Shown here in pieces: positions 27,822-46,935 of a DNA stretch of 64,000 nt. The stretch is from Thermoplasmata archaeon (lineage in GTDB: Archaea; Thermoplasmatota; E2; JACPAO01; JAHFTW01), in the NCBI GenBank assembly GCA_034667725.1, contig JAXDQS010000003.1:384001-448000 (forward strand), written 5' to 3'. Under the pieces are notes generated by a model that had not been told where the DNA came from, made no database searches, and saw only the letters and a program-made list of their open reading frames with translations. The position numbers were made by a program, and so were the translations under genes. Numbering within the stretch: the stretch's first letter is position 1; the number at the start of each line of letters is the position of its first letter.

Positions 27822-28523
27822 ATGGACGGCTTCGTCATCCGCGCCGACCGCCTGGAGCGCGTCTATGGGAGCCAGCCCAGCCAGGAGGCCGCGTTGCGCG
27901 GCGTCGACTTCCGCGTCCGCCCCGGCGAGATGGTCGCCATCATGGGCCCTAGCGGCTGCGGCAAGACGACGCTCTTGAACTGCCTCTCCGGCCTCGACAC
28001 GCCCACCAAGGGCACGGTGGTCTTGGCCGGCCAGTCCCTCGGCGCCTTGCGCGAGCCGCGGCTCACGCGCCACCGCGCCCGTTCGGCCGGCTTCATCTTC
28101 CAGGCCTACAACCTGATTCCGGTCCTCACCGTCGAGGAGAACGTCATGCTGCCGCTGGTCACGGCCGGCATCAAGGAGGCGGAGGCCCGGCCCAGGGCGC
28201 GCGACCTGCTGGCCCGCCTCGGCATGGCTGGCCTCGAGGGCCGCCTGCCGTCGGAGCTGTCGGGGGGCGAGCAGCAGCGCGTCGCCATCGCGCGCGCCTT
28301 GGTGGCCAAGCCCGCGGTCGTGTTCGCGGACGAGCCGACCGGCAACCTCGACAGCGCCCGCGCCGCCGCCCTCCTGGACCTGCTGCGCGCCGCCAACCGC
28401 GACGGGCAGACCTTCGTCATCGTGACCCACGACGCCCAGGTCGCGGCGGCGTGCGGCCGCGTGGTCCGGATGGCGGACGGCCGCATCGTCGGCGACGACG
28501 GGCGCGACGGGCAGGCGGCCTGA
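27822..28523 (+). CDS. ABC transporter ATP-binding protein (LolD/MacB type)
   Basis: GPSGCGKT; LSGGEQQR; ADEPTGNLD; VTHD. Confidence 0.95.
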   Translation: MDGFVIRADRLERVYGSQPSQEAALRGVDFRVRPGEMVAIMGPSGCGKTTLLNCLSGLDTPTKGTVVLAGQSLGALREPRLTRHRARSAGFIFQAYNLIPVLTVEENVMLPLVTAGIKEAEARPRARDLLARLGMAGLEGRLPSELSGGEQQRVAIARALVAKPAVVFADEPTGNLDSARAAALLDLLRAANRDGQTFVIVTHDAQVAAACGRVVRMADGRIVGDDGRDGQAA

Positions 28524-31500
28524 TGGCCCGCCGGGGCGGCCTGGTCCGGTTGCCGATGCTGGCCCGCCTCGCGGCCCGCTACGCCCGGCGGCACCGCGCC
28601 CAGACGGTGCGGGCGGTCCTCGGGCTCTTGGTCGTGTCGCTCATCCTGACCGTGGGCATGGGCCTCGGCGACTCGTTGCAGGCCTCCTTGGGCCAGTCGG
28701 TCGAGACCCGGTTCGGCCCGGTCGATGTCGTGGTGCGCGGCCCGCCGCAGTTCAATGCCACCTTGCTGCCCGAGCTGGAGCAGGTCGCCGGCGTCCAAGG
28801 CGTCCCGACCCTCGTCGTGGTGGGCTCCGCGAGCAACCCGCGCAGCGCACGGGCGGAGGCGTTCGCGTCGCTGCGCGGCGTCGATTCCAAAGAGCCCGCC
28901 CTGCTCGGCCCTCTGCCCGGCGGCGTGGCGGAGCCCGGCCCGGGCGAGGTGGTGCTGTCGGCCGGCCTGGCGACCCGCCTCGACGCCCAGCCTGGGGACC
29001 TGCTGACGCTGCGCCTGCTGCCGCAGGACCTGAACGAGACCCTCGGCATCCAGGCCACGACGGCCGCGGGCAACCTGACGGCAGGCGGCCGCGTCGAGGT
29101 GCCGTTCACGGTCGGCGCCGGCGCGCTCGGCGTGCTGGCCAACGCCGACGGGGCCGGGCTGGAGGCCGCGCTCCGGTCGCCCACCGGGCAGATCCACCCC
29201 GCCGAGCAGGGGGAGGTGCGCGTCCTCGGGCAGGTGGCGGCCGGCGGCTGGAACCTCACCCTCACGGCGTCGGCGGCAACAAGCTACGAGGCGGTCGTGC
29301 GGGTCGGCTACACGCCGCCCGACCTGGAGGCGCTCGTGGTGGTGCTCAACGCCACCGTGGCCGGGATCGCGCCGACCGAAGGCCGCGCCGCCATCACGCC
29401 CCGCCCCGGCGCCCTGCTGCCGCTGGCCGACCTGGAGGCCGCGCTGGGCCAGACGGGCCTGGCGTCGCACGCCTACTTCACGGCGCCCGGGCCCGGCGAG
29501 GCCGTCCGCGCCGCCGAGGCGCTGCGGGCGCACCTCGACAACCGCACCTGGCGCGCCGACGCCGTCAAGGAGGACGCCGTCACCCGGATCCGCACCGAGG
29601 CCGGGCAGGTGACGGGCTTCATCCTGGTCATGGGCGGCTTCACCATGGTCGCGAGCATGCTGCTGGCCTACGTGCTGTTCAGCTCCTTGGTGGAGGAGCG
29701 CCGCGTCGAGCTCGGCATCGCGCGCGCCCTCGGGCTCACCCGCGGCGAGGTCGGCCTCGCCATGCTGCTGGAGGCGCTGCTCTACTCCGTCCTTGCCGCC
29801 GTCGCCGGCGTCGTCGCGGGCCTCGGCCTGCTGCTGGCGCTCCAGCCGGTGGCCAACGGCTACTCGGCGCAGTTCAACGGCCCGCCGCTGTTCTTGCACC
29901 TTGAGCCGAACACCGTCCCGCTCGCGTTGGCCGGCGGCGTCCTGCTGCCGCTTGCGACCATCGCCCTCGGCACGCTGCGCTTCACCCGCCTCGACCCGTC
30001 GCGCGCCATCCGCGGCTCCCCCGAGGACGTCCGGGTCCACCGCCGCCTCGCCGACGTCGCTGGCTGGCTCCTGTTGGCCTTCGGCCTCGCCCTCCTGCTG
30101 GACCCGCTCGGCCGGCTCGTCGGCATGGGCGTCGCCGCCGCGGGTGCCGCGACCTTGCTGCTGGCCGCCCGCCGCCGCGGCTGGGCCGCCGTCGCCGCCC
30201 TCGCCGGCATCGCCGCCACCGCCTGGACGCTCTACACGTTCGAGGAGTTCCCCCGCCTGCGCCGCGACCTCGACCCGGTGTTCACCATGCTGCGCGCCCT
30301 CATGCTGGCCCTGCTGTTGGCGACCCTCGCGGTGTGCTCGCCGCGGCCGTTTGGCGCCGCCGGCCGTCTGTTCGCGCGCGTCGCGGGGCTGCGCCGCGCC
30401 GCCTACGCCGCGTTCCGCTACCTCGGTGCCCGCCGCGTCCAGGCCGGCCTCACCGCCGCCATGGTCGCGGTCGTCGCCGTCGTCGTCACCGTCATGGGCA
30501 CGCTTGCCGCCGTGTTCGCGGGCACGCTCGTGACCCAGGAAGCCGGCTACGACCTGATCGGCCAAAGCCCGTTCCCGCTCACCACCTTCCCGCGGCCCTT
30601 GGACCCCGCCGACGCGGCCGGCATCGCGCGGGCCGACTTCGTCGCGGTCCACAACCCGTTCGGCGGCGCCCGCGTCCTGTTCGAGGGCGAGCCGTTCCGC
30701 GAAGGCCGCTTCGTCCGCTTCGGCGGCGTGACCCCCGGCTTCGCCGGCGCCAACGAGTACCAGTTGAGCGACCGCGACGCCCGCTACCCGAGCGACCGCG
30801 CGGCATGGGAGGCCGTCGCCCGCGGCGAGGCCGCCCTGCCGCCGTCGTGGTACTTCGGCAACGGCGAGCTGGAGGTCGGCGGCACGCTCCAGGTCGGCGC
30901 CGGCGCCGGCGAGCGCAGCTACGTGGTCGCGGGCGCCATCGCCAACGCGCGCCGCGGCGAGATTTTCCTGGCCCACGACCACGTGCGCGGCATGGGCTTC
31001 CCGCAGTCGGCCATCGTGTTCGTGCGGGTGGCGCCCGGCACCGACCCGGCGCGGCTGGCGCACAGCCTCACCGACGCCTACCAGGCGGACGGCCTCGCCT
31101 TCGAGAGTGTTGCGGAGGAGGCGCAGGAGGCCGCCGACCTGCTGCAGGCGAGCATCCTCATCGTGCAGGCGTTCCTGTTCCTCGGCGTCTTCGTCGGCAT
31201 CGCCTCCACCGGCTTCCTGGCCGCGCGCGCCGTCCACGAGCGCATGCGCGAGATCGGCACGCTCCGGGCCCTCGGCTACGAGGAAACCGACGTCCGGCGC
31301 GCCTTCGTGCTGGAGTCCACCGTCGTGGCCGCCCTCGGGCTCCTGCTCGGGACCGCAGTCGGCCTGCTGGTGGCGCACAGCATCTGGTGGCGCACGGTGC
31401 GGCAGGGCGCCGGCCCGTTCAACGTCCCGTGGGACGTGCTGGCGGTCTTCTGGGCGGCCGTGCTGCTGCTCACGGCACTGGCGTCGTGGAGCCCGACCCG

Positions 31501-31549
31501 GCGCGCCGCCCGCCTCGACCCGGCCGCGGCGCTACGCCACGTCGAGTAG
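28523..31549 (+). CDS. FtsX/MacB-type ABC permease (two permease domains)
   Basis: ERRVELGIARALG and ERMREIGTLRALG; multiple TM helices; RLDPAAALR. Confidence 0.92.
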   Translation: MARRGGLVRLPMLARLAARYARRHRAQTVRAVLGLLVVSLILTVGMGLGDSLQASLGQSVETRFGPVDVVVRGPPQFNATLLPELEQVAGVQGVPTLVVVGSASNPRSARAEAFASLRGVDSKEPALLGPLPGGVAEPGPGEVVLSAGLATRLDAQPGDLLTLRLLPQDLNETLGIQATTAAGNLTAGGRVEVPFTVGAGALGVLANADGAGLEAALRSPTGQIHPAEQGEVRVLGQVAAGGWNLTLTASAATSYEAVVRVGYTPPDLEALVVVLNATVAGIAPTEGRAAITPRPGALLPLADLEAALGQTGLASHAYFTAPGPGEAVRAAEALRAHLDNRTWRADAVKEDAVTRIRTEAGQVTGFILVMGGFTMVASMLLAYVLFSSLVEERRVELGIARALGLTRGEVGLAMLLEALLYSVLAAVAGVVAGLGLLLALQPVANGYSAQFNGPPLFLHLEPNTVPLALAGGVLLPLATIALGTLRFTRLDPSRAIRGSPEDVRVHRRLADVAGWLLLAFGLALLLDPLGRLVGMGVAAAGAATLLLAARRRGWAAVAALAGIAATAWTLYTFEEFPRLRRDLDPVFTMLRALMLALLLATLAVCSPRPFGAAGRLFARVAGLRRAAYAAFRYLGARRVQAGLTAAMVAVVAVVVTVMGTLAAVFAGTLVTQEAGYDLIGQSPFPLTTFPRPLDPADAAGIARADFVAVHNPFGGARVLFEGEPFREGRFVRFGGVTPGFAGANEYQLSDRDARYPSDRAAWEAVARGEAALPPSWYFGNGELEVGGTLQVGAGAGERSYVVAGAIANARRGEIFLAHDHVRGMGFPQSAIVFVRVAPGTDPARLAHSLTDAYQADGLAFESVAEEAQEAADLLQASILIVQAFLFLGVFVGIASTGFLAARAVHERMREIGTLRALGYEETDVRRAFVLESTVVAALGLLLGTAVGLLVAHSIWWRTVRQGAGPFNVPWDVLAVFWAAVLLLTALASWSPTRRAARLDPAAALRHVE

Positions 31550-32992
31550 CGCCGGCAGCGCCACGCGCAGCCCGCCGAACTCTGCGACCCCCGAGGGCGC
31601 CGGCGCCGCGGCGTAGAGCGCGTGGTGGCCTGCGACCGCGAGCCGCAGCGTCTCGCCTGCGCGCAGGCGCAGCGCCACGGGCGCCAGGTCGAAGGCGAAC
31701 GGCTGCGGCGAGCCGGAAGGCACGACGCGCTGCGGCATGGCTTGGCCGTTGGCGGCGCGCGCGTGCCCTTCGGCGTCGACCGCCTCCAGCGACCAGTAGA
31801 CCACGCCGCTTGCCGCGGTGGGCGCGACGGTGCCTTCCAACCGCGGGACGCCGACGAGGGCCCCGTCCCCGCCGGCGGGCCGGACGGGCGTCGCGGCGCG
31901 CGCCGTCATGTTGCCGACCTGGAGCCGAAGCGGATCGGCGGGATGCGTGGCGTGGTTCGGCTCGGGCAACGCAGGGAGGGTGAGGACGCCGCCGCCGTCG
32001 AGCGCAAGGCACACCGTGGGCGTCGCTGTGTCCTCGCCGAGCAGGTGGCGCTGGAACCAGGCGAGCGCCAGCGCGTCAGGCAGGCCGCACGGGTGGCGTG
32101 ACGGCGGGGCGGTGGCGTTGCCGCGCACCGGCGTGTCGAGCGAGTGCCCGCCGAGGTGGGCCACGAGGGCGACGGGGCCCGTGGCCTGGGCGTGGTTCCG
32201 CAGCGCCTCGCCGAGGTCGAACAGCGAGTCGTTGGCGCCTTGGACGAACAGCGCGGGCACCGCGACACCGCCGGCTTGGTGGCTCGGGCTGCTGGCCGCG
32301 AGCGCGGCGGCAAGCGAAGCCGGCACGGCGCCGTCGCGCAGCGTCTGCTCGAAGCCGGCGCGGATGTCCGGATGGATGCGGCCCTGGATGGCGGCGGACA
32401 GCCAGAGCGACGCCACCCACGCCGTCTTGGGGACGCCGTTGGGCGCAAGCGCGTGCACCAAGTCGTTCCAAGTGTCCTCCGCGACGACGGCGTCGAGCCG
32501 CGAGTCGAGGGCCGCCGTCAACAAGGGGAACGCACCGCCGTAGCTCTCGCCCATGGCGCCCGCCACCGGGTCGCCGGCTGCCTCCTGGCGAACCCAGTCG
32601 AGGCCGGCGAGGTGGCCGAGCACCGCCTGCACGTCGCGAATCTCGAAGTCGGGGCTTGCGACCCGGGCCTGGCTGGTGGCGCGCGCCTCGCCGTGGCCGC
32701 GCATGTCGATCGACACGACCGCGAGGCCCGCGTCGGTGAACGCGCGGAACGCCTCCAGCCGGGTCTCGCGCGCGCCGCCCCAGCCGTGGCTGTGCAGCAC
32801 GACGGGCACGGGCGCCGCAGCACTCGCGCCTTCCGGCCGGTAGATCGTGACCGGCACCGGATGGCCGTCGAACGACGCAATGGTCAGGAACGTGGCACGC
32901 TCCGGCGGCGCCGTCGAGGACCCCGGTCCCTGGCCGAGGCAGGCGCTCAGGGCGACCGCCGCGACGACCAGGACTAGGAGGGCGGGGCGCAA
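31532..32992 (-). CDS. CocE/NonD alpha/beta hydrolase lipoprotein
   Basis: lipobox LSAC; HGWGG; DMRGHG; GESYGG; QGANDSLF; TTG start inferred. Confidence 0.85.
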   Translation of the reverse strand: MRPALLVLVVAAVALSACLGQGPGSSTAPPERATFLTIASFDGHPVPVTIYRPEGASAAAPVPVVLHSHGWGGARETRLEAFRAFTDAGLAVVSIDMRGHGEARATSQARVASPDFEIRDVQAVLGHLAGLDWVRQEAAGDPVAGAMGESYGGAFPLLTAALDSRLDAVVAEDTWNDLVHALAPNGVPKTAWVASLWLSAAIQGRIHPDIRAGFEQTLRDGAVPASLAAALAASSPSHQAGGVAVPALFVQGANDSLFDLGEALRNHAQATGPVALVAHLGGHSLDTPVRGNATAPPSRHPCGLPDALALAWFQRHLLGEDTATPTVCLALDGGGVLTLPALPEPNHATHPADPLRLQVGNMTARAATPVRPAGGDGALVGVPRLEGTVAPTAASGVVYWSLEAVDAEGHARAANGQAMPQRVVPSGSPQPFAFDLAPVALRLRAGETLRLAVAGHHALYAAAPAPSGVAEFGGLRVALPALLDVA

Positions 32993-34482
32993 GCGGCAGG
33001 ACGAAGGCCACGGGCGCAAAAAGCCAGCAGCAGGAGCAGCAGCCCCACGCTGGCGCCCGGCGCCCGCTCGTCCGGCTGGCCGAAGTCGAACACGGGCGCG
33101 CGCTCCAGCGGCGACACCAGGTGGCGGATGGTCCGCCCCTCCCAGGTCGCCTCGGCCTCGCCCACGACGGGCACGCCAGCCACGAACGCCGGCTCCCACA
33201 GGAGGGTCGCGGTGCCGTCGGCGGCCGTCATGCCCGAGAGGCCGTCGAGCCGCACGGTCGCGTTCGCGACGGGGGCGCCGACGGGGTCGAGCACGGTGGC
33301 CTGCACCTGGTACATCGCGCGCACCGGCTTGGTGGCGGCGGTGGAGTAGCTATTGCCGTCGAGCGCGAGCAGGGTCGGGTTGGCGGCGAACACGTCGGTC
33401 TCGCCGGTGCCGTTGAACACGGTGCGCTCGACCCGCAGGCCGGCGTCCTTGACCGAGACGCCGCCGACCGAGTTGCCGGCGAGGCGGCTGTCGGCCACGC
33501 GCAGCTCGGCGTGCTCGGCGAACAGGCCGACCGTGGCCTGCGCCTCCGGCTTGGGCGAGACGTCGCAGGCGTTGACCTCGACGACGCCGGGCGTGCCAGG
33601 CACGGGCGCCGGCTGGTGCGTGAGCCCGAAGTTGCCGTAGCGCAGGCGGCAGCCATGCAGCGTGGCCGAGGAATCGACCAGGACGACGGCGTTGCGCGCC
33701 GACAGGTCCACGTCGTCCGCGACGACGGTGCTGCGGGTGGCGTGCAGCGCGACCCGGTCGGTGCGCGCCGTGACGTTGCGCAGCGTGAGTTGCGACGAGG
33801 CGACCCGGATGCCCTCGATGCCGGTGTTGAGGTCGGCGTCCTCGAGCACGAGCGTGCCGTTGAGGGCCGCGAACGCGCCGCTTGCGATGCGCACCGTGAC
33901 ATCGCGCGCGAAGGCCGCGCCGCCGTCGTGGGCGAACAGGGCGGGGCCCTTGATGTCGGCGACCGCGGTGTGGTTGAGGTAGGCGCGGCCGGTCTTTGTG
34001 GCCAGGAGGCCGCCGCCGAGGAACGACTCCGCCATGAAGCCCTCCAGGCCCCGGATCTGGACCGGGTTGCCGGGCAGGCCTTCGGCGACGAAGACGCCCT
34101 CGACGGTGACGGTGTAGCCGTAGCTGGCGTTGGCGGGCTCCATCGTGGCGGCGCGCTCGGGCGTGGAGCGCAGCTCCAGCCGGCCGCCCGCCTCGACGCG
34201 CACGTCCAAGCCTTCGCTGGCTGCGCCCAGCCACTTGTCCTGGTAGGGCGGGGAGGCGATGCGCAGCGTGCAGCCTTCAAGCACCAGGGCGCCGCCGGCC
34301 ACGACCCGGAGGTCCTGCTCGACCAGCACGGTGTCGTCGCGGCAGTGGACCTCGGTGTCGATGACCTTCCAGGCGGCTTCGCTGGACCCGTCCGCCTGCC
34401 CCTGCGCGGGCAGCGGGAGGAGGACGAGGAGGATGAGGCCGGCCAGCAGGGCGCGCCTAGGGTTCGGCGACACGGAGGTCAT
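32974..34482 (-). CDS. secreted right-handed beta-helix protein with C-terminal anchor
   Basis: signal peptide; parallel beta-helix-type repeats; C-terminal APG + hydrophobic run + Arg. Confidence 0.75.
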   Translation of the reverse strand: MTSVSPNPRRALLAGLILLVLLPLPAQGQADGSSEAAWKVIDTEVHCRDDTVLVEQDLRVVAGGALVLEGCTLRIASPPYQDKWLGAASEGLDVRVEAGGRLELRSTPERAATMEPANASYGYTVTVEGVFVAEGLPGNPVQIRGLEGFMAESFLGGGLLATKTGRAYLNHTAVADIKGPALFAHDGGAAFARDVTVRIASGAFAALNGTLVLEDADLNTGIEGIRVASSQLTLRNVTARTDRVALHATRSTVVADDVDLSARNAVVLVDSSATLHGCRLRYGNFGLTHQPAPVPGTPGVVEVNACDVSPKPEAQATVGLFAEHAELRVADSRLAGNSVGGVSVKDAGLRVERTVFNGTGETDVFAANPTLLALDGNSYSTAATKPVRAMYQVQATVLDPVGAPVANATVRLDGLSGMTAADGTATLLWEPAFVAGVPVVGEAEATWEGRTIRHLVSPLERAPVFDFGQPDERAPGASVGLLLLLLAFCARGLRPAACAPPS

Positions 34483-37770: not shown

Positions 37771-38706
37771 CTACATCTTCTCGTTGTTGTCCGCGGGGTT
37801 GTACAGCATCGTGATCGGGCTGATGCACTGGGGGTCGGCCGCGTCAATCAGTCCGTCCTGGTCGTTGTTGTCGATGCCGTCGCTGCACTCCGGCTCCTCG
37901 CTGGTGTCGTCGTAGCTGCTGCAGCCGGAGTCGTCGAAGTCGATGGTGGTGTCGGCGTCGGCGTTGTCGACCTTGTCGTCGCACTGGGGCGGCGTGCAGC
38001 CGACCGCGCCGACCTTCATCCAGACGTCGTAGGTGCCGGCAGAGATGCCGGCGCCGATGTTCGGGGTGAAGGGGTCCGCGCTGACCCAGTTGCCGATGAA
38101 CACCACGATCTGGCCGGCGTTCCACGGGTTGGGCGCCATGCCGGGAATGGCCGGCATCATGCAGAAGTTGGCGCGCTCGGCGTCCGTCGGGTCAAGGCCG
38201 CAATCCTTGTCGTCCTTGGACTTCTCGGGGTCCGAGCAGGCGGCGGTGGCGACCTGGGCCTGGTTGGAGTAGTCGCTGCGCAGCTGGTCGTCGTTGTCGT
38301 TGACGTTGGTGCAGATGCTGTCGAAGTCGCGGTCGTTGCAAGTGGTCATCTCGAAGCCGGTGACGAACTGGCCCGTGGTCCACTCCGCCCAGACGCTCAC
38401 CGCGACGTTGACCGGCAGGGCCGGCAGCGCGTTGCCAGGGAAGATGGCGGCGCCCGGGTTGGCCGTGCCGGCCGTGAAGCACGGGAAGGGCAGCGGGAGC
38501 GCGGGGTCGGTGCAGACGCCGGCGCCAACGCCGATGACGGGCTTGACAGTCACGCTGCCGGGGCCGAGCACGGTCAGACACTCGATCTTGTCGCCGTCCG
38601 CGTTGGTGTTGTCTTCAGCCCCACAGTTGACGTCGTAGGGCGCGCCCTGGACCGCAAGGGTGGCCGAGGCGAACATGGCCGCCAAAAGCACGTATGTCAG
38701 TTTCAT
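37771..38706 (-). CDS. secreted Cys/Asp-rich protein with CxDGxDND..G.ID..DxxC repeats
   Basis: signal peptide MKLTYVLLAAMFASATLAVQG; QCDDKVDNADAD; ECSDGIDNNDQDGLIDAADPQC. Confidence 0.8.
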   Translation of the reverse strand: MKLTYVLLAAMFASATLAVQGAPYDVNCGAEDNTNADGDKIECLTVLGPGSVTVKPVIGVGAGVCTDPALPLPFPCFTAGTANPGAAIFPGNALPALPVNVAVSVWAEWTTGQFVTGFEMTTCNDRDFDSICTNVNDNDDQLRSDYSNQAQVATAACSDPEKSKDDKDCGLDPTDAERANFCMMPAIPGMAPNPWNAGQIVVFIGNWVSADPFTPNIGAGISAGTYDVWMKVGAVGCTPPQCDDKVDNADADTTIDFDDSGCSSYDDTSEEPECSDGIDNNDQDGLIDAADPQCISPITMLYNPADNNEKM

Positions 38707-38807: not shown

Positions 38808-39470
38808 TCACAAGAGGACGCGTAGCCCCAGTTCGGTCGTTGACCCGTTCGTGGCCGAAGTGGCCTCGCCCGCCACCACGCTTTCCTCCGCCTCGCGCGG
38901 CAGGTCGCCGAGCGCCTCGAGCAGGCTGCTTGCGAGCACGGTGCGGCGCAGGCCGCCCTCGGACTCGACGGTCAGGAGGTCCATGTCGGCCAGCTGGCGC
39001 AGGTGCCAGCGGACGGCGCGCGGCGTGATGCCGACCTCGCGGCTGACGGCGCGCCAGCTCAGGTCCGGCTGCCGCACCAGCATCCCGAGGATGCGGCGGC
39101 GGGTGTCGCCCTGGATGCTGCTGACGGCGCGGTGGACGGTGGCGGGGCCGGCGCCGCGCGGGAAGAAGTGGACCTTGCGGCCCTCGGGGTGGGCGGCGAC
39201 CAGGCGGCCGCGCACCAGGCGCTGGAGATGGTACTTGACGTTGTCCCGGCCAAGCCCCGTGAGGCGGCCGAGCTCGGTCTCGCACAGGCCCCACTGCTGC
39301 TGGATGAGGTCGAACAGCGCCCGCCGGGTGGGGTGGGCCAGCAGGGCCGCGGCCTCGGGGTCCCGGATGGCGTCGCGCAACTCGTTGGATGGCTGGGGCG
39401 CCCGGTCGCCTTCCGTCCTAGGAGCGGGCGGATCACGGAAGCCTGCCGTCCAAGGGGAGGCGTGCGTCAC
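38808..39470 (-). CDS. soluble double winged-HTH transcriptional regulator (COG3398/ArsR-like)
   Basis: HPTRRALF..ELGRL..VKYHLQRL; second RRRIL..VRWHLRQL; GTG start inferred. Confidence 0.85.
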   Translation of the reverse strand: MTHASPWTAGFRDPPAPRTEGDRAPQPSNELRDAIRDPEAAALLAHPTRRALFDLIQQQWGLCETELGRLTGLGRDNVKYHLQRLVRGRLVAAHPEGRKVHFFPRGAGPATVHRAVSSIQGDTRRRILGMLVRQPDLSWRAVSREVGITPRAVRWHLRQLADMDLLTVESEGGLRRTVLASSLLEALGDLPREAEESVVAGEATSATNGSTTELGLRVLL

Positions 39471-39502
39471 AGCGCGCGCATTTGGATGGTGACTCAAAGG
39501 GA

Positions 39503-39526
39503 GATTGGGCCATTTTGTTAGCCAAT
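39503..39526. promoter_or_regulatory. candidate operator GATTGGGCCA-N6-TAGCCAAT, copy A
   Basis: 18/24 identical to 42928-42951; ATTGG-N13-CCAAT dyad; 32 nt upstream of inferred start 39470. Confidence 0.6.
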
Positions 39527-39555
39527 CGACGCAAAGCGCGGTTTTGGGGCGCCGG

Positions 39556-42500
39556 CTATGCGGATGCCGCGGCCGGATAGATCTGCTTGACCAGCCCACG
39601 GCGCTCGCCACGGACCAAGCCGGCCTTCTCCATGCGGCGGATGTGGTAGTGCAGGCCCTTGCTGGAGACGCCCAGCGCCCGCGCCATCGAGGTGGCGTCC
39701 TGGCCGGGATGCTGCTGCACCCGCTCCAGGATCTGCTGCGCCAGCGGCGCCCGCAGCACCCGTGACTCGGCCAGCTGCGCCCGCGGGTAGCCCTTCGGGT
39801 AGTAGCAGGTGTAGCCCTGCACCTCCGAGGACTGCAGCACGCCGTGGCCCAAGAGCACGCCGAGGTGGTAGGTCACGACGCGGCGGGAACGGCCGGCGCG
39901 GCGGGCCAGTTCGCGCTGGTGGATGCCCGGGAGGGCGAAGACGAGGGCGGAGATTTGCGCGCGCACCGGGTGGTCGAGCGCGTCGCGGCCGGTGAGGCGG
40001 CTGAACTGGTACAGCAGCGCCGGCACCAAGCGCTTGCGCCAGCGGAACAGCCAGGCCAGGCCTGCGACCGCCACGGCGGCGGCCACCCAGCCCCAGGCCG
40101 AGGAGCCTCCGCCGGAGTCCGCGCTCAAGGCGGCGGCCGGGCGGGGCGCAAGGCGCGACCGGTCGCCGGCCAAGAGGCCGGCGCAGGCGTCGCCCGCGCC
40201 CGCGGCGTCGCTGTCGAGCTGGTCCGGGTTGGGGACGGTCGGGCAGTTGTCGAGGTAGAGCGCCGCGCCCTTGTCCGCGACCGTGTCGCCGTCCATGTCG
40301 GCGTCGCAGGCGTCGCCCGCCCCGTCGCGGTCGAGGTCCTCCTGGCTGGCGTTGGCGTCGAACACGCAGTTGTCGGCCAGGTCCTGGATGCCGTCGCGGT
40401 CGGTGTCGCGGCCGCCGGTGCCAGGCCGGGGCACGAAGGGCTGGTCGGCAACGTAGGGGACCGTGTCCTCGCAGGCGTCGCCCACGCCGTCCTGGTCGAG
40501 GTCGGCCTGGTCGAGGTTGGGCGTGCCAGGGCAGTTGTCGGCGGCGTCCTGGACGCCGTCGCGGTCGACGTCGGAGTCGAGGCCGCGCACGTTGACGCGC
40601 ATCGACTCGCGGTCGTAGGCGAAGCCGTCGAACGCCTCGAAGGTGAGGGTGTGGACGCCGGTGTCCCAGCCCTGCGTGACGAAGGTGTAGCTGCCGGTGG
40701 CGAAGTTGATGCCGGGCGAGGTCACGAGCGCGCCGTCGGGCTTGCCCACCACGACGCGGACGTCGAGGGTGGGGCCGTCGGAGTCCGTGGCGGCAAGCGG
40801 GATGGCGATGCTCTGGCCCGGGGTCGTGTAGATGTCCTTGAGGGTGGCGAGGTCGGGGACGCAGTTGGGGTCGCCCGGCGCCGGGTACTCGACGGTGGCC
40901 GCGGTGCTTCGGCCGTCGTCATCGTAGGCCGTCAGCGTGACCGTGACGGGGTCGGAGGTGGCGAACTGGTGGATGGCGGGGTTGCCGTCCGCGCCGTCGC
41001 CGTCGCCGAAGTCCCAAGTGAAGGTGAGCGGGGCGCCGCCGTCGGGATCGTAGGAGAGGTCGGCGAAGAAGTGGACCCGGTTGTCGACGCAGTCGGCGCC
41101 GCCGCCGCCCAGCCGGATGACGGCCACGGGGGGGACGTCGCACTCGATGACGCGCACCGGCTTGCTGACGGAGTCCCGCGCGCCGGCGTCGTCCCACACC
41201 GTGAGCTTCACCGTGTAGGTGCCGGGGAGGGCGAAGACATGGGACGCGGTTGCGGACCAAGGGTCGTAGGTGGTCGTGAGGGAGTCGCCCCACTCCCAGA
41301 GGCTCTTGTCCAAGGCGCCGACGCCCGGGGTGGAGAAGTCGTTGAACGAGCGGGCCTTGCGGGCGCACGCGACGGTCGGGTCCCAGCCGGGGGGCGTGTA
41401 GGGGCCGCGCGGGCCGGTGGGCGCCGAGCCGGTGGTGGGCGCGAAGTCGGCCACGGGCACCGGCGGGAACGAGCCCGAGGCGCTGTACCACATGCGGTTC
41501 TCGTTGCTCGACTCGACCATGATGCTCGCGAACACGTTGGAGTCGGAGACGATGCGATGCTGACCCGGCGTCACGGACAGCATCTGGCAAGCGTAGCCGC
41601 TGCTGCCGACAGGGGAACCGAGCGAGAACGGCACGCCGTCCATGTTGGCCACGGCGCCGGCGGGGCCGACGACGTAGACCGCGCGGCCGGTCCAGTCATG
41701 GTCGGGGACCCAGAAGTCAAGTTGCGGGGCCCAGCGGGTGGTGGGGCGCGGCACCAGGATGGCGGGGTCGCCGAGGACGGTGGCGGTCTGCTCGGCGGCC
41801 ACGACGGAGACGGCCACGTCCTGGGTGGCGTTGAGGTGCATGTTGGTGCCGAGGTCGAACTGATACCAAGAGCCGACGCCGGAGAGCTGGACGCCAGTGG
41901 GCGTGATGGTGAAGCCCTTGCCGGTGGCGTAGTAGCCGGAGGCGGGCGGGCTGGAGCCGCGGAACATGCTCGGCGACACTGGGACCGGGTCGATGGTGAC
42001 GTCGGTAAGGCCGGGCTTGGTGGCCACGACACGGTAGCTGTTGAAGCTCCCACCGGCGGCGCAGCCAACGTACTCGGTGCCAAGGTGGTGCGCCGGCAAA
42101 GTCGGGTCCTCGAGGTGGTTGCACTGCGAGGCGCCGGCCTTGGCGCAGAGGCTGGAGCCGAACACCGCCACCGGATGGTCGGACTCCAGGATGGAACCGG
42201 TGACGTCGCCCATCGCGTCCAGCCGGCGCGACTCGTAGGGGCCGAGCGTGAACGTGGTGGGGACGTCCTTGGCCATGGCCGGGAAGGTGGGGTCCGCGGG
42301 GGAGAAGCTGAAGCCGCTGCGGTAGACGCCATAGTCGATGTTGGCCGCCGGCGTGAGGGTCACGGTGGCGCCGTCGGCGGTGGCCACAACAGACAACGTG
42401 TTGGCGCCCTTCTCCTCGTAGTGGGCCAGGAAGTGGCTGTAGCCGAGGGCGCTCGTGGGCAGCAGGGTGCTGGCCTCGGCGACGGCGCTGCGGCCGCGGA

Positions 42501-42897
42501 TTGCGGCGAACTGGGAGACCACGATGTCGTCGCTGGTGCTGGTGAACCAGTGGACGAACAGCGGCGTGTGCAGGCGGCCGCCCGGGAACGAGTTGTCGCC
42601 GTAGGGGCTGACGTAGGTGTACAGCGCCGTGGTCATGGCGGGGACGGTCAGGGTGGCGGCCAGGCCGACCGTGGAGTTGTGGACCTCGACGGTGGCGTCC
42701 ACGGTGCCGATGTTGGAGATGGACCAGGTGGTGGACGGCGGGCCCGCCGCGGCAGTGTTGCCGGGCGAGTAGCTGAACGGCAGCGAAATCCCGATGTGCT
42801 CGGAGGCGGCGTCGGCGGAAGGGGCGCCCACCGCCACCAGCAAGGCCAGCAGGGCGGCGCCAGCTAGTGCCAAGGCTGCGCGGCCAAGACCACTCAT
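39556..42897 (-). CDS. membrane-spanning regulator: IgGFc-binding-like, 2 PKD, TSP3 repeats, TM, double wHTH
   Basis: signal peptide; VVATADGATV..SDHPVAVF..NHLE; WDFGDG; DxDGxxDxxDNC repeats; TM; PGIHQREL..YHL; PGQD..YHIRRM. Confidence 0.9.
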   Translation of the reverse strand: MSGLGRAALALAGAALLALLVAVGAPSADAASEHIGISLPFSYSPGNTAAAGPPSTTWSISNIGTVDATVEVHNSTVGLAATLTVPAMTTALYTYVSPYGDNSFPGGRLHTPLFVHWFTSTSDDIVVSQFAAIRGRSAVAEASTLLPTSALGYSHFLAHYEEKGANTLSVVATADGATVTLTPAANIDYGVYRSGFSFSPADPTFPAMAKDVPTTFTLGPYESRRLDAMGDVTGSILESDHPVAVFGSSLCAKAGASQCNHLEDPTLPAHHLGTEYVGCAAGGSFNSYRVVATKPGLTDVTIDPVPVSPSMFRGSSPPASGYYATGKGFTITPTGVQLSGVGSWYQFDLGTNMHLNATQDVAVSVVAAEQTATVLGDPAILVPRPTTRWAPQLDFWVPDHDWTGRAVYVVGPAGAVANMDGVPFSLGSPVGSSGYACQMLSVTPGQHRIVSDSNVFASIMVESSNENRMWYSASGSFPPVPVADFAPTTGSAPTGPRGPYTPPGWDPTVACARKARSFNDFSTPGVGALDKSLWEWGDSLTTTYDPWSATASHVFALPGTYTVKLTVWDDAGARDSVSKPVRVIECDVPPVAVIRLGGGGADCVDNRVHFFADLSYDPDGGAPLTFTWDFGDGDGADGNPAIHQFATSDPVTVTLTAYDDDGRSTAATVEYPAPGDPNCVPDLATLKDIYTTPGQSIAIPLAATDSDGPTLDVRVVVGKPDGALVTSPGINFATGSYTFVTQGWDTGVHTLTFEAFDGFAYDRESMRVNVRGLDSDVDRDGVQDAADNCPGTPNLDQADLDQDGVGDACEDTVPYVADQPFVPRPGTGGRDTDRDGIQDLADNCVFDANASQEDLDRDGAGDACDADMDGDTVADKGAALYLDNCPTVPNPDQLDSDAAGAGDACAGLLAGDRSRLAPRPAAALSADSGGGSSAWGWVAAAVAVAGLAWLFRWRKRLVPALLYQFSRLTGRDALDHPVRAQISALVFALPGIHQRELARRAGRSRRVVTYHLGVLLGHGVLQSSEVQGYTCYYPKGYPRAQLAESRVLRAPLAQQILERVQQHPGQDATSMARALGVSSKGLHYHIRRMEKAGLVRGERRGLVKQIYPAAASA

Positions 42898-42927
42898 AGG
42901 GGCACATTGGTGCATGATTCTAAACAC

Positions 42928-42951
42928 GATTGGGCCAGTCCACTAGCCAAT
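42928..42951. promoter_or_regulatory. candidate operator GATTGGGCCA-N6-TAGCCAAT, copy B
   Basis: 30 nt upstream of ATG 42897, just upstream of a minus-strand TTTAGA TATA-like box. Confidence 0.6.
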
Positions 42952-43100
42952 TTGGGTCAAAACGATAGCCAAAGTGGGCCCAGGCTTTGTTTTCGGCAAC
43001 GCCGCGCGCGCCTGCGGGACTGCGCCTTCTCCCGGCCTTCCCCGCAATTTCAGCGGTCGGTCCACTCTGGCTTTTATTCGGTGGACCCTTTCGTTTTCCC

Positions 43101-44576
43101 ATGCGGCGACCGTCCCTGCTCCCGCTTCTTGCGCTCGTGGCGCTCGTGGCCGCCGCGCTGCCCCACGCCGCGGCCGAGGGCTACGACGGCGGCGACGGCG
43201 GGCTCCTGGGCGGCCTTGGCGATCTGGACCGCCTGCTGCCCGGCCCCGACGACCCCGGGCCTGAGGTGGCCCCGGTGGAGTTGCCTGCCGTCGAGGAGCC
43301 GCCCCTCGTCGCCGACGCGCTCGAAGCGGTCCGCCTGGTGCGCGACCTGGCGCTCAAGCTCGGCACGCCCATGCCCAAGGTCGACCTCTCGATGCTGACC
43401 GACCTGATCGCCCCGTCCGCGCCGTGCGCCCCGCCCGCCGTTTGCCCGCCCCCGCCGCCCCCGCCGCTGTCGCCGGGCCCCACGGTCTCTGTCGGGCCCG
43501 CGCTGGAGGACGACCCGGAGCCCTCCGTCGTCCCGGGGGCGGCCCGCGAGCGGCCCACGCCCGAGGAACCGGCCTGCCGCGACCCGGCCTGCGGCGCCCT
43601 CCCTCTCCTGGGAGCGCTTCTCGCGACGCCTGGCGACGGCCGCGCCGACGCTGCCCAGCCGCCGCACCGCGCCGCCCCGGTGCAGGACCAGGACAAGGAC
43701 GGCATCGGCGACGAAGCCGACAGCTGCCCCGTCGACCCCAATCCGCTCCAGGAAGACCTCGACCGCGACGGCGTGGGCGACGCCTGCGACCCCGACCTGG
43801 ACGGCGACGGCATCGCCGAGGACGGGCCGTTCGGGGACAACTGCCCCACCGTCCCGAACCCGGACCAGCTCGACAGCGACGCCGCGGGCGCGGGCGACGC
43901 CTGCGCCGACGCCGCCCCCGCCCCAAGCCTCAAGGGCCGCGCCCCCGGCCGCCTCGCCGCGGCGCCCGCGTGGGAGTTCCCCTGGTGGCTGCTCGGCGCC
44001 CTCGCCGCCGCCACGGGAGCCGCCGCCGCGTGGACGCACCGCCGCAAGGCCCCCCTGCTGTTCGCCCTGCTGTTCTCCCGCCTCGCCGGCGACGACATCC
44101 CCTCCCAGCCGGCCCGGTCGCGCATCCTCAAGGAGGTCGCCGCCGCGCCCGGCATCCACTTCAACGAGCTCGCGCGCCTGTCCGCCTGCGGCCGCAGCGC
44201 GCTGCGCCACCACTTGCGCGTGCTGCAGCGCTCCGGCCACGTCCGCCTGCGCGCCTCCGGCCGCTACGTCTGCGTGTACCCCGCCGACGTCCAGCCCCGC
44301 CACGCCGAAGGCTTCCTCAAGAGCGCGCTGGCCTGCCGCGTCCAGGCGATCGTCGTGGGCAACCCCGGCATCACCGTCGCCGAGGCCGCCCGCCAGCTCG
44401 GCGTCAAGTACGGCGCCGCCGCCTACCACATGCGGCGCCTCGGCGACGCCGGCGTCGTGCAGTTGCACGGCTGGCCGATTCGGGCGTTCCCCGCGACCAC
44501 CGCGGCAGGCACCGCGGAGGCTGGGGCGCCGCCTGCGTTCGGCGCGGGCACGGCGCGGCCGGGGCTCCAGACCTAG
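43101..44576 (+). CDS. membrane-spanning regulator: Pro-rich linker, TSP3 repeats, TM, double wHTH
   Basis: signal peptide; [10 protein letters not shown]; [11 protein letters not shown]; TM; LFSRL; [11 protein letters not shown]; [11 protein letters not shown]; TTTTAT box about 25 nt upstream. Confidence 0.9.
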
Positions 44577-44904: not shown

Positions 44905-46935
44905 CTACAAAGGTCCGCAGGTCGGCACGATGCCGCCGTATCCCCCGTTGTTGCCGGGGTTGCCAGGCGGCAGGGAGCCAGAGGAGGCCGTGCCCGCCGA
45001 ACCGCCGGGCGCTCCAGGTGCGCCAGGCGTGGCGGCGCCCGGGGCACCGCCTGCACCACCAGGCGCCCCTGCTCCGGGTGCGCCTCCTGCCAGCAGGCCG
45101 GGGGCGCCGTTGCCGCCATCGCCGCCGTGGCCCGCAAGGCCGCCCCAAGCGATGGCGTCGCCGCCGTTCCCACCCGGGTAGCCGTAGAGTCCTTCGCCGC
45201 CGGGTCCGCCCGTGGCCGCGTTGCCTGCGCCGCCACTGTTTCCTGCGCCCCCGGGGCCGCCGGCGCCGCCGTTGATGCCGCAGGCACCCGTTCCGCCGTT
45301 GCCACCGGAGCCGCCGCGTCCGCCTTGGGCGCTCGCGGAGCCGCCGGCACCCCCTGGGCAGCCTGCACCGCCGCCCCCGCCAAACGCCGGAGAGGCGGGA
45401 GACCCGGGTGTACCATCGGTGCCGGGGTGGCCGGAAGCGCCGCTGGCCGGCGGAGCCCCGTCGGCGCCGTCAAAGCCGTCAAAGCCAGGGTCGCCGTCAC
45501 CATTGCCGCTGCCGCCGGCACCTCCGGCGCCGCACGCAGTCTCGGTCCCCCCGCTGCCGGACGTGTTGTCGCAGTCCGCATCCACCTGGTCCGCCAGGAG
45601 GCTAGATTCGGATGCCGAATAGAGGACAACGGCGCCGCCGTCCCCGCCATCGCCGCCGCGGGCCGAGTTGATGCCGAGCAGGTTGCGAAGGAGGGTGGCG
45701 TGCCCGCCCCTGCCGCCCGCGCCTGAGGCGTAGGTGGACGGGCTGCCGGAAAAGGAGGCTGCTCCGAAGTAGAGGTTTCCGCCTTGGCCGCCGTGGCCAC
45801 CGGTGGCGGGCGCGGCGGCTTCGGTGGCCGCGTCGCCGCCGTCGCCGCCGTCGCCTGAGCGCGTCATGCCGGAGAGCGTGATGCTGCCAGCGGGCGCCAG
45901 GAGCATCAGGAGACCACCGCCTTCGCCGTTGGTGGCGATGGCACCTGAGCTTCCCGACGCGCCCGTGGCGCTTGCCAAGGTGCCGGTGACGCCGACGTTG
46001 CCAGACTTGGAGACCAGGACGAGGTGGGACCCGGGGCGGCTGGTCGTCATGGTGCCGCCGATCAGGATGTCGCCGTCGGCGATGATGCAGGTGTCGCCGT
46101 CAAATTCCGTGGTGTAGCCAGGGGCGAGGGTGTAGCTGGGGTGGCGGTAGGTGCCTGACGGCAACACGGCATGGTGGACGGGCGTCTGGTACCAAGGCGA
46201 GGCCGAGTCGCAGGACAGCGCCCCAGACGGAATCGAAGAGGTCGGAGCGCTGACTGTGTAGGTGTTGACGGCGCCACTGGCAGGCGCTTCCAAGGCGAAC
46301 AGGCTGATGTGGCCCTCGTTGACGGCGTCAAGCCACGCCAGGTCCACCGTCACGGATTCTGCGGGGCCCGTCACGCTGCAATCGGTGCCAGCGACCTGCG
46401 AGAACATCGGAACCGGGGTTCCGTCGCTTGTGAGCTGGAACGTGACGTATTGGCTGCGGGAGTAGGCCGTGACGGAGCCCATGGGGAAGTCGGCGTTGTT
46501 GCAGAATGTAGGGGCCGTGGTGGTCGTGTAGCCGTCGTACTTGCCGTTGGAGATGCCGCTCGGCTGGCAGAAGCCGCCCGCATCGTCGTAGCCAGCGCTC
46601 GCATAGCACAAGCCGCCGCGACCGCCGGAGCCCAACTGGGCGGCGTCTCCGTTGGACTCGCAGACCGTCAAGCCGAGGAGCACATCGCCTTGCCGTAGGC
46701 CCGACACGCTGCCCCCTAGGCACAACAAGTCGACGAGGAAACCGAGGATGGCGTGGAGCGGATCTGCAGCCAGCAGGTCGCAGGCCAGCATCGTTGGGTC
46801 GTCGGCAGGCATGCGGGCGCCGATGGAGTCGGTCCATTGTGCAGCGTCGCTCCCCGTCATGTGGTGGGCAGACGCATCCGAAACCAGGGGCATCAGCAGA
46901 AGACCGGCCAGCAGGGGGACAACCGTTCGCGTCAT
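44905..46935 (-). CDS. secreted protein with Gly-rich (collagen/PGRS-like) C-terminus
   Basis: signal peptide ending ASA; long GGxGGxG and GxP repeats. Confidence 0.8.
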   Translation of the reverse strand: MTRTVVPLLAGLLLMPLVSDASAHHMTGSDAAQWTDSIGARMPADDPTMLACDLLAADPLHAILGFLVDLLCLGGSVSGLRQGDVLLGLTVCESNGDAAQLGSGGRGGLCYASAGYDDAGGFCQPSGISNGKYDGYTTTTAPTFCNNADFPMGSVTAYSRSQYVTFQLTSDGTPVPMFSQVAGTDCSVTGPAESVTVDLAWLDAVNEGHISLFALEAPASGAVNTYTVSAPTSSIPSGALSCDSASPWYQTPVHHAVLPSGTYRHPSYTLAPGYTTEFDGDTCIIADGDILIGGTMTTSRPGSHLVLVSKSGNVGVTGTLASATGASGSSGAIATNGEGGGLLMLLAPAGSITLSGMTRSGDGGDGGDAATEAAAPATGGHGGQGGNLYFGAASFSGSPSTYASGAGGRGGHATLLRNLLGINSARGGDGGDGGAVVLYSASESSLLADQVDADCDNTSGSGGTETACGAGGAGGSGNGDGDPGFDGFDGADGAPPASGASGHPGTDGTPGSPASPAFGGGGGAGCPGGAGGSASAQGGRGGSGGNGGTGACGINGGAGGPGGAGNSGGAGNAATGGPGGEGLYGYPGGNGGDAIAWGGLAGHGGDGGNGAPGLLAGGAPGAGAPGGAGGAPGAATPGAPGAPGGSAGTASSGSLPPGNPGNNGGYGGIVPTCGPL

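Follow-up and report, generated by a model that had tools for sequence, protein, structure and literature searches.

Putative type-I transmembrane transcription regulators with surface-protein ectodomains at a three-gene locus of a Thermoplasmata archaeon

How archaea convey events outside the cell to their genes is poorly understood, and a locus of three neighboring genes in a Thermoplasmata archaeon raises the question of whether proteins built like surface proteins can themselves be transcription regulators. The locus lies in a 64,000-nucleotide window (72% G+C) covering positions 384,001 to 448,000 of contig JAXDQS010000003.1 (GenBank assembly GCA_034667725.1), from a genome of 2.32 Mb in 26 contigs that is 90% complete; all window coordinates below count from its first nucleotide. 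Two divergent genes, P0002 and P0003, encode large proteins in which an adhesin-type ectodomain is joined to a pair of winged helix-turn-helix (wHTH) domains, and a third gene, P0001, encodes a soluble pair of wHTH domains. We conclude that P0002 and P0003 are probably type-I transmembrane one-component transcription regulators with an autoregulatory circuit, and that action from the membrane is the favored mode. The locus also belongs to a very large, uncharacterized archaeal family of putative single-protein sensors reaching from outside to gene, a point missed by an earlier note on this DNA, which had read the three genes as a surface-sensing system.

Architecture and predicted topology of the receptors

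The layout that the earlier note ascribed to P0002 and P0003, namely a signal peptide, TSP3 repeats, a transmembrane (TM) helix, a basic patch, an FSRL motif, and two wHTH domains, is borne out by Pfam, by the sequence, and by hydrophobicity (Table 1). P0002 runs from its signal peptide through an IgGFc_binding domain and two PKD domains, both recovered by Pfam as the note had anticipated, to three TSP3 repeats, the TM helix, RWRKR, FSRL, and an HTH_HVO_0163_N domain followed by HTH_24. P0003 opens with a Sec-type signal peptide and continues through a Pro-rich region and TSP3 repeats to a predicted TM helix and the tandem wHTH. In each receptor a single hydrophobic stretch, free of charged residues, lies between the TSP3 repeats and the wHTH domains, and a signal peptide directly follows the start codon in both receptors and in all 14 fused paralogs of the genome. 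Across 102 relatives the net charge is +1.4 after the TM segment versus -1.0 before it, as expected if the C terminus is inside. Signal peptides, a single TM helix, and positive-inside charge thus support the proposed N-out/C-in type-I topology, in which the tandem wHTH is predicted to be cytoplasmic; the contrast that the note drew with the opposite topology of ToxR and CadC was correct. The concern that the fusions might be misassemblies does not hold: the layout recurs in 12 further paralogs, and TSP3-TM-wHTH fusions occur in an independent assembly (P0078, a protein with PKD, He_PIG, TSP3, TM, and wHTH parts) and in two other genomes of the same genus (G004 and G005; the genome under study is G000), so it is not an assembly artefact. 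The layout is far beyond chance.

All three proteins score above the PF24266 cut-off of 31 bits (P0001, 39.5; P0002, 46.8; P0003, 55.4), and a second wHTH domain follows the first directly in each, as indicated by Pfam and, for P0003, by an AlphaFold2 (AF2) model. HTH_HVO_0163_N, HTH_20, HTH_24, and MarR_2 are above cut-off in both receptors, and the ArsR/SmtB subfamily hidden Markov model (HMM) NF033788, with a cut-off of 55 bits, is passed by P0001 (64.3 bits) and not by P0002 (33.9) or P0003 (33.3). P0001 was rightly described as a double wHTH alone; Pfam shows just two wHTH domains, and the protein lacks both a TM segment and the FSRL motif. The AF2 model of the P0003 module contains two confident wHTH domains (mean pLDDT, 85) behind an ill-defined juxtamembrane segment. 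With two wHTH domains per chain, these proteins are unlike the ArsR/SmtB metalloregulators, which are homodimers of single-wHTH chains with metal-sensing sites, and searches of the PDB by sequence and by fold returned single ArsR-type matches (the best being 5duk) or generic tandem-winged-helix scaffolds, with no match specifically spanning both domains. The best Foldseek matches of the two-domain model are scaffolds of ESCRT-II, SelB, ScpB, and TFIIIC (TM-scores of 0.37 or less), which would suit an alternative in which the tandem winged helices are protein-interaction modules or nonspecific DNA tethers in the style of ScpB, ESCRT-II, or RPC62, anchoring factors or the chromosome to the envelope. 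We regard this as very improbable, since both domains score well above cut-off against DNA-binding HTH profiles of the ArsR/MarR/IclR type, P0001 passes the ArsR/SmtB model by the score given above, and a locus-specific box with two half-sites stands beside TATA elements.

The TSP3 repeats of P0002 and P0003 score above the PF02412 cut-off and carry the Asp-rich motif DxDxDGxxDxxDxC, which is predicted to bind calcium. TSP3 motifs occur in 23 open reading frames (ORFs) of the genome, and 16 of these encode surface proteins with a signal peptide, a variable ectodomain, one to three TSP3 repeats, a C-terminal TM helix, and an Arg-rich RRR tail (for example, C10:278332-281595, C10:211497-214016, and C3:9948-16889). 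A repeat so widely used seems to be a generic membrane-proximal stalk of the organism, and the idea of TSP3 as a dedicated sensor is therefore not upheld. Two of these surface proteins, C10_278332 and C10_211497, even combine an IgGFc_binding-type domain with TSP3 and a TM helix in the absence of any wHTH, and four fused paralogs (P0002, P0003, L031, and L032) carry TSP3, two of them with PKD as well. To judge from their sequences, the receptors resemble the organism's ordinary surface proteins, with a transcription factor appended behind the anchor. As a separate observation, a 287-aa protein with four TSP3 motifs, a C-terminal TM helix, and no wHTH is encoded in G004 at L151:8091-8954, on the strand opposite to, and convergent with, the 3' end of the TSP3-TM-wHTH receptor gene L151:9470-11023.

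Table 1. Features of the locus, in window coordinates
Feature	Position	Strand	Basis or remark
P0001, 220-aa soluble tandem wHTH, GTG start	38808..39470	-	ORF, Pfam
P0002, 1113-aa putative type-I receptor/transcription factor	39556..42897	-	ORF, Pfam, hydrophobicity
P0002 predicted Sec-type signal peptide (MSGLGR...APSADA, then AS)	42808..42897	-	Read from sequence
P0002 IgGFc_binding-type domain	41527..42474	-	PF17517, 2.8e-34
P0002 two PKD domains	40894..41328	-	PF18911, 1.2e-21, two stretches
P0002 TSP3 repeats (predicted calcium-binding), membrane-proximal stalk	40165..40605	-	TSP_3, 1.4e-20
P0002 last TSP3 repeat, gene-conversion tract	40179..40251	-	97% identical to P0003 counterpart
P0002 predicted transmembrane helix	40045..40101	-	Kyte-Doolittle (KD) 1.65 over 19 residues, then RWRKR
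P0002 basic patch, short hydrophobic juxtamembrane stretch, FSRL motif	39994..40044	-	Sequence
P0002 tandem wHTH (HTH_HVO_0163_N, 3.2e-12, plus HTH_24)	39577..39966	-	Pfam
P0003, 491-aa putative type-I receptor/transcription factor	43101..44576	+	ORF, Pfam, hydrophobicity
P0003 TSP3 repeats	43656..43925	+	TSP_3, 1.1e-12
P0003 last TSP3 repeat, other arm of the 73-nt inverted repeat	43836..43908	+	97% identity
P0003 predicted transmembrane helix, Ala/Gly-rich, Trp-flanked, uncharged	43977..44033	+	KD 1.2, then HRRK
P0003 basic patch and FSRL-containing juxtamembrane motif	44034..44084	+	Sequence; low AF2 confidence
P0003 tandem wHTH (HTH_HVO_0163_N, 6.2e-15, plus HTH_24)	44103..44462	+	Pfam, AF2 model
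Box 1	42930..42950	.	4 nt upstream of TATA-like TTTAGAAT (42917-42924) of P0002
Box 2 (TTGGGTCA-N6-TAGCCAA)	42952..42972	.	In tandem with box 1, P0002/P0003 divergent intergenic region
Box 3 (TTGGGCCA-N6-TAGCCAA)	39505..39525	.	5 nt upstream of TATA-like TTTGAGT (39492-39498) of P0001
GGTCCAC-N15-GTGGACC inverted repeat bracketing TATA-like TTTTATT of P0003	43059..43087	.	Weak alone

A family of fused and soluble members

An HMM built from the three tandem-wHTH modules (P0001, P0002, and P0003) finds 23 paralogs in the 2.3-Mb genome, 14 fused and 9 soluble. The fused members share a signal peptide, an ectodomain of 80 to 900 residues, one TM helix, a basic patch, and a C-terminal tandem wHTH. 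Tethered members carry the motif L[FY][ST]R[ILF], at a median distance of 14 residues behind the TM helix, and the soluble paralogs lack it; the combination of TM helix, basic patch, and this motif ahead of the module, a feature derived here, is present in P0002 and P0003 and missing from P0001. About 20 HisKA and 24 receiver matches were found in the same genome, so the fused family adds to two-component signaling and does not replace it, and its 14 copies are comparable in number to the roughly 20 histidine kinases.

The family reaches well beyond this genome. When 1.84 billion representative proteins were searched with the profile, 24,602 representatives matched at E <= 0.001, of which 1,464 reached E <= 1e-30, and 83 of the best 150 have one N-terminal hydrophobic segment and one TM segment directly before a C-terminal module. 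The exhaustive HMM search was needed because a word-based search with the P0003 C terminus found two relatives only; a search with full-length P0002 returned only TSP3/PKD proteins of bacteria and archaea, none of them related over the full length. In the atlas, the nearest clusters are 93 to 100% archaeal and hold mostly forms of 180 to 270 aa. One named relative comes from a Thermoplasmatota metagenome-assembled genome. All 24 other genomes searched of the order contain 13 to 83 matches, other orders of the class 0 to 10, and many other Thermoplasmatota families 10 to 50. Most long relatives match no Pfam family outside the HTH part. Our literature search for HVO_0163, COG3398, PF24266, and membrane-associated transcriptional regulator brought up nothing on function.

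Two variants of the family deserve mention in their own right. P0008, a public representative of 911 aa, contains five tandem-wHTH profile stretches and no TM segment and is a poly-wHTH protein. In a split version, a gene for a receptor with a signal peptide, a single TM helix, and a cytoplasmic tail of 130 to 150 aa is followed directly, or overlapped, by a gene for a soluble tandem wHTH; such loci lie at C10:164120-165984 and C5:149464-152263 in G000 and at L150:15121-17195 in G005, and at the C5 locus a gene for a small secreted protein precedes the receptor.

A locus-private box, gene conversion, and the rival readings

One link between P0002 and P0001 is a 21-bp box, TTGGG[CT]CA-N6-TAGCCAA, which occurs three times in the 2.3-Mb genome at zero or one mismatch, each time at this locus. 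With two mismatches allowed, three more sites appear, as many as shuffled sequences lead one to expect. The TATA-like elements next to boxes 1 and 3 start 27 to 28 nt before the start codons of P0002 and P0001 (27 nt for the P0002 ATG at 42897), a spacing that fits leaderless transcripts. The sequences flanking the boxes are unrelated to each other, so the boxes are not a mobile repeat. The regulatory link that had been proposed between the genes thus gains a candidate operator at the P0002 and P0001 promoters. The extension of this control to surface-protein genes is not supported: neither the box nor a pair of half-sites is found upstream of the flanking secreted-protein genes or elsewhere in the genome. 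Two side observations concern the box itself. The half-site TTGGG[CT]CA is present nine times in the window versus 2.4 expected from the genome-wide rate, the boxes explaining only three of these, and a near-match to the box (ATTGGCTAATGATGGGCCAAAT) lies at C1:229351-229372 of G000, about 1.9 kb from the tethered paralog C1:231220-232077.

A second tie joins P0002 and P0003. The identical peptide that the earlier note saw in both is confirmed at 24 residues, and the DNA beneath it is a 73-nt inverted repeat of 97% identity, whereas the neighboring TSP3 repeats are 71 to 78% alike; this disparity indicates gene conversion between the two genes. Common descent is a different matter. When the 23 modules are placed in a tree, P0003 forms a supported group with L031 and L032, and P0002 and P0001 fall outside that group, so that an origin of the trio by local duplication was rejected and a recent shared ancestor of its wHTH modules is not supported. 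Nor is the trio conserved, relatives carrying TSP3-TM-wHTH genes singly. By the evidence of these sequences, the trio is species-specific, and its members are tied by the conversion tract and by the box that they share rather than by common descent.

In the mechanism that we favor, Sec export and signal-peptide cleavage would put the ectodomain outside on a calcium-binding TSP3 stalk, one helix would span the membrane, and the tandem ArsR/MarR-like wHTH (PF24266 plus HTH_24) would face the cytoplasm. Paired within one chain, the two wHTH domains would act as a built-in pseudo-dimer able to read both of the box's unequal half-sites. Because the box flanks the region of the B recognition element (BRE) and TATA element in the P0002 and P0001 promoters, the circuit would be both auto- and cross-regulatory. 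The regulator would act from the membrane on its own locus, which, as it encodes exported proteins, should be held near the membrane as transcription, translation, and insertion proceed together. As a soluble paralog under the same control, P0001 would most likely compete for or add to box occupancy, or would be a feedback element. The note had called P0001 a soluble partner; that it binds the receptor found no support, and a complex prediction for the P0002 cytoplasmic module with P0001 scored 0.14 against a mark of 0.32, which speaks neither for nor against. The architecture, the topology features, the family size, the place of the box at the promoters and its confinement to the locus, and the gene conversion are observed; we infer the binding of the box, the binding protein among the three, the sign of the regulation, and action from the membrane, and the external signal could be a ligand of the ectodomain, a calcium-dependent state of the stalk, or damage to the ectodomain.

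The membrane step could also be arranged differently. In a regulated proteolysis that follows the logic of Notch or of anti-sigma factors, the tethered wHTH would be inactive until the ectodomain was damaged, shed, or cleaved in response to a ligand and a subsequent cut within the membrane freed a soluble, P0001-like factor. We consider this possible though not likely, and give the same weight to its corollary that ectodomains copying TSP3-stalked surface proteins would be sentinels for attack on the surface proteome. The ectodomain-TSP3-TM layout shared with the 16 surface proteins described above, including the two that lack a wHTH, would suit such a role, as would the confinement of the conserved juxtamembrane motif to tethered members; soluble tandem-wHTH paralogs imply that a free form is functional. 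Candidate proteases are present, namely two or three site-2 protease homologues and one rhomboid, but site-2 protease and rhomboid matches occur in all 14 control genomes and so discriminate nothing. Moreover, neither a cleavage site nor a site-1 protease was identified, and the candidate operators are found only at the regulators' own locus, within reach of a tethered factor.

Several findings weigh against an autoregulatory circuit run from the membrane by P0002 and P0003, and some of them speak for another reading, in which the three genes, each an independent member of a huge set of paralogs, became neighbors by chance, with at most a common operator for P0002 and P0001. With 23 paralogs in 2.3 Mb, chance adjacency is conceivable; the three modules are not nearest neighbors of one another in the tree, and in G004 and G005 the TSP3-TM-wHTH genes occur singly, so P0003 may be linked to the others by position only. 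Nor does the P0002 ectodomain have an orthologue among 31 genomes of its taxonomic family. Concerted evolution of the TSP3 repeats across the 23 TSP3 genes also means that conversion need not imply shared function. P0003 has no box adjoining its own TATA element, and the 7-bp inverted repeat found there is not significant, a comparable repeat being present in 4 of 15 upstream regions. Its predicted TM helix is weakly hydrophobic (KD 1.2); at the equivalent position, the TM segment is clear in the orthologue-type proteins of G004 and G005. The intact box is absent from the 31 genomes, where one-mismatch hits are scattered (13 versus 4 in a reversed control), so the function of the box rests on a single genome. 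Nothing here discriminates action from the membrane from proteolytic release, and the literature searched holds no experiment on any family member. Chance adjacency nevertheless seems unlikely to us, as the three copies of the box, unique in the genome, are placed at the promoters of P0002 and P0001 and between the divergent genes P0002 and P0003, and the conversion tract joins exactly these two adjacent genes.

For an autoregulatory circuit of this kind, the locus is an unusually clean test case, with three candidate regulators and a genome-unique box in three copies. DNA binding, the sign of regulation, and membrane-bound versus released action would all be testable with synthetic genes, although the organism is uncultured.

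The genes around the trio are in keeping with the earlier description of flanking secreted proteins: those at 32974-34482, 34457-~37560, 37771-38706, and 44905-46935 all begin with signal peptides. The gene at 37771-38706 (- strand), directly downstream of P0001 on the same strand, encodes a secreted Cys- and Asp-rich protein of 311 aa with no Pfam match, and its first-codon-position G+C of 0.58 is below that of its neighbors. Farther off, at 27953-31549 (+ strand), lies a gene for an FtsX-like permease of about 1,000 to 1,200 aa with about 12 hydrophobic segments.

Comparison with known systems

The kind of regulator to which P0002 and P0003 would belong is already known, and Pfam lists their wHTH family; the literature searched does not describe the joining of type-I topology to surface-protein ectodomains, the extent of the expansion, or the locus-private operator. 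A census of transmembrane transcription regulators (TTRs) takes in ToxR, TcpP, CadC, and the archaeal ArnR, which act from the membrane, counts TTRs with HTH_20 and HTH_24, gives an archaeal mean of 4 TTRs per genome, and does not mention Thermoplasmatota (PMC10269533). It defines a TTR by a predicted DNA-binding domain and at least one predicted TM region. P0002 has both, with a clear TM segment, and P0003 appears to have both, its predicted TM segment being weak though uncharged, Trp-flanked, and followed by HRRK. The ectodomains here derive from surface-protein modules (PKD and TSP_3), neither of which occurs in the part of the census's supplementary tables considered here, and 14 fusions in a 2.3-Mb genome exceed the archaeal mean.

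Like ToxR, TcpP, and CadC, the receptors would unite an extracytoplasmic domain, a TM segment, and a DNA-binding wHTH in one chain, as one-component systems that need no phosphorylation. Unlike ToxR and CadC, they have a reversed topology, with a cleavable signal peptide and the ectodomain at the N terminus and the DNA-binding part at the C terminus, and their tandem wHTH is ArsR/MarR-like, where those regulators have a single OmpR-type domain, N-terminal and cytoplasmic, ahead of a C-terminal periplasmic sensor; the Pfam scan gave no Trans_reg_C (OmpR-type) hit. They share with ArnR and ArnR1 the character of archaeal membrane-bound one-component factors, ArnR acting on promoters of surface-structure genes. 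ArnR has a cytoplasmic HTH at its N terminus and an anchor of TM helices at its C terminus, and it is not known to have a large ectodomain or the PF24266-type tandem wHTH found in P0002 and P0003. ArnR and ArnR1 of Sulfolobus acidocaldarius are the archaeal examples of the census (PMC10269533; PMC6396743), and ArnR is the only membrane-bound archaeal regulator system cited there as studied.

A resemblance to Notch is also evident, in that a repeat-rich, predicted calcium-binding ectodomain of adhesion type, one TM helix, and an intracellular transcription regulator follow one another in a single chain; no sequence or fold relationship exists, and this is resemblance, not membership. An archaeal cell has no nucleus, so release of the factor is not required. 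The boldest extension of the comparison is that much of the envelope sensing in Thermoplasmatota is Notch-like: ordinary TSP3-stalked surface proteins would have become sentinels by the addition of a cytoplasmic tandem wHTH, intramembrane proteolysis would set in once the ectodomain was lost or cleaved or the stalk unfolded in a calcium-dependent way, and the freed factor would switch the locus operator jointly with a soluble relative of the P0001 kind. We hold this to be rather improbable; if true, it would reveal a kinase-free, proteolysis-driven receptor family, unrelated in sequence to Notch and as numerous as histidine kinases.

The closest comparisons are within the family itself. As in other HVO_0163-like (PF24266) proteins, a second wHTH accompanies the first in all three members of the locus; the atlas forms are mostly short, whereas in P0002 and P0003 the module ends proteins with large ectodomains. 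The split cassettes of the same genus employ the same wHTH family, with a single-pass receptor encoded immediately upstream of a soluble regulator; in P0002 and P0003, by contrast, the regulator is fused to the receptor, and P0001 follows a receptor that already bears a wHTH module of its own.

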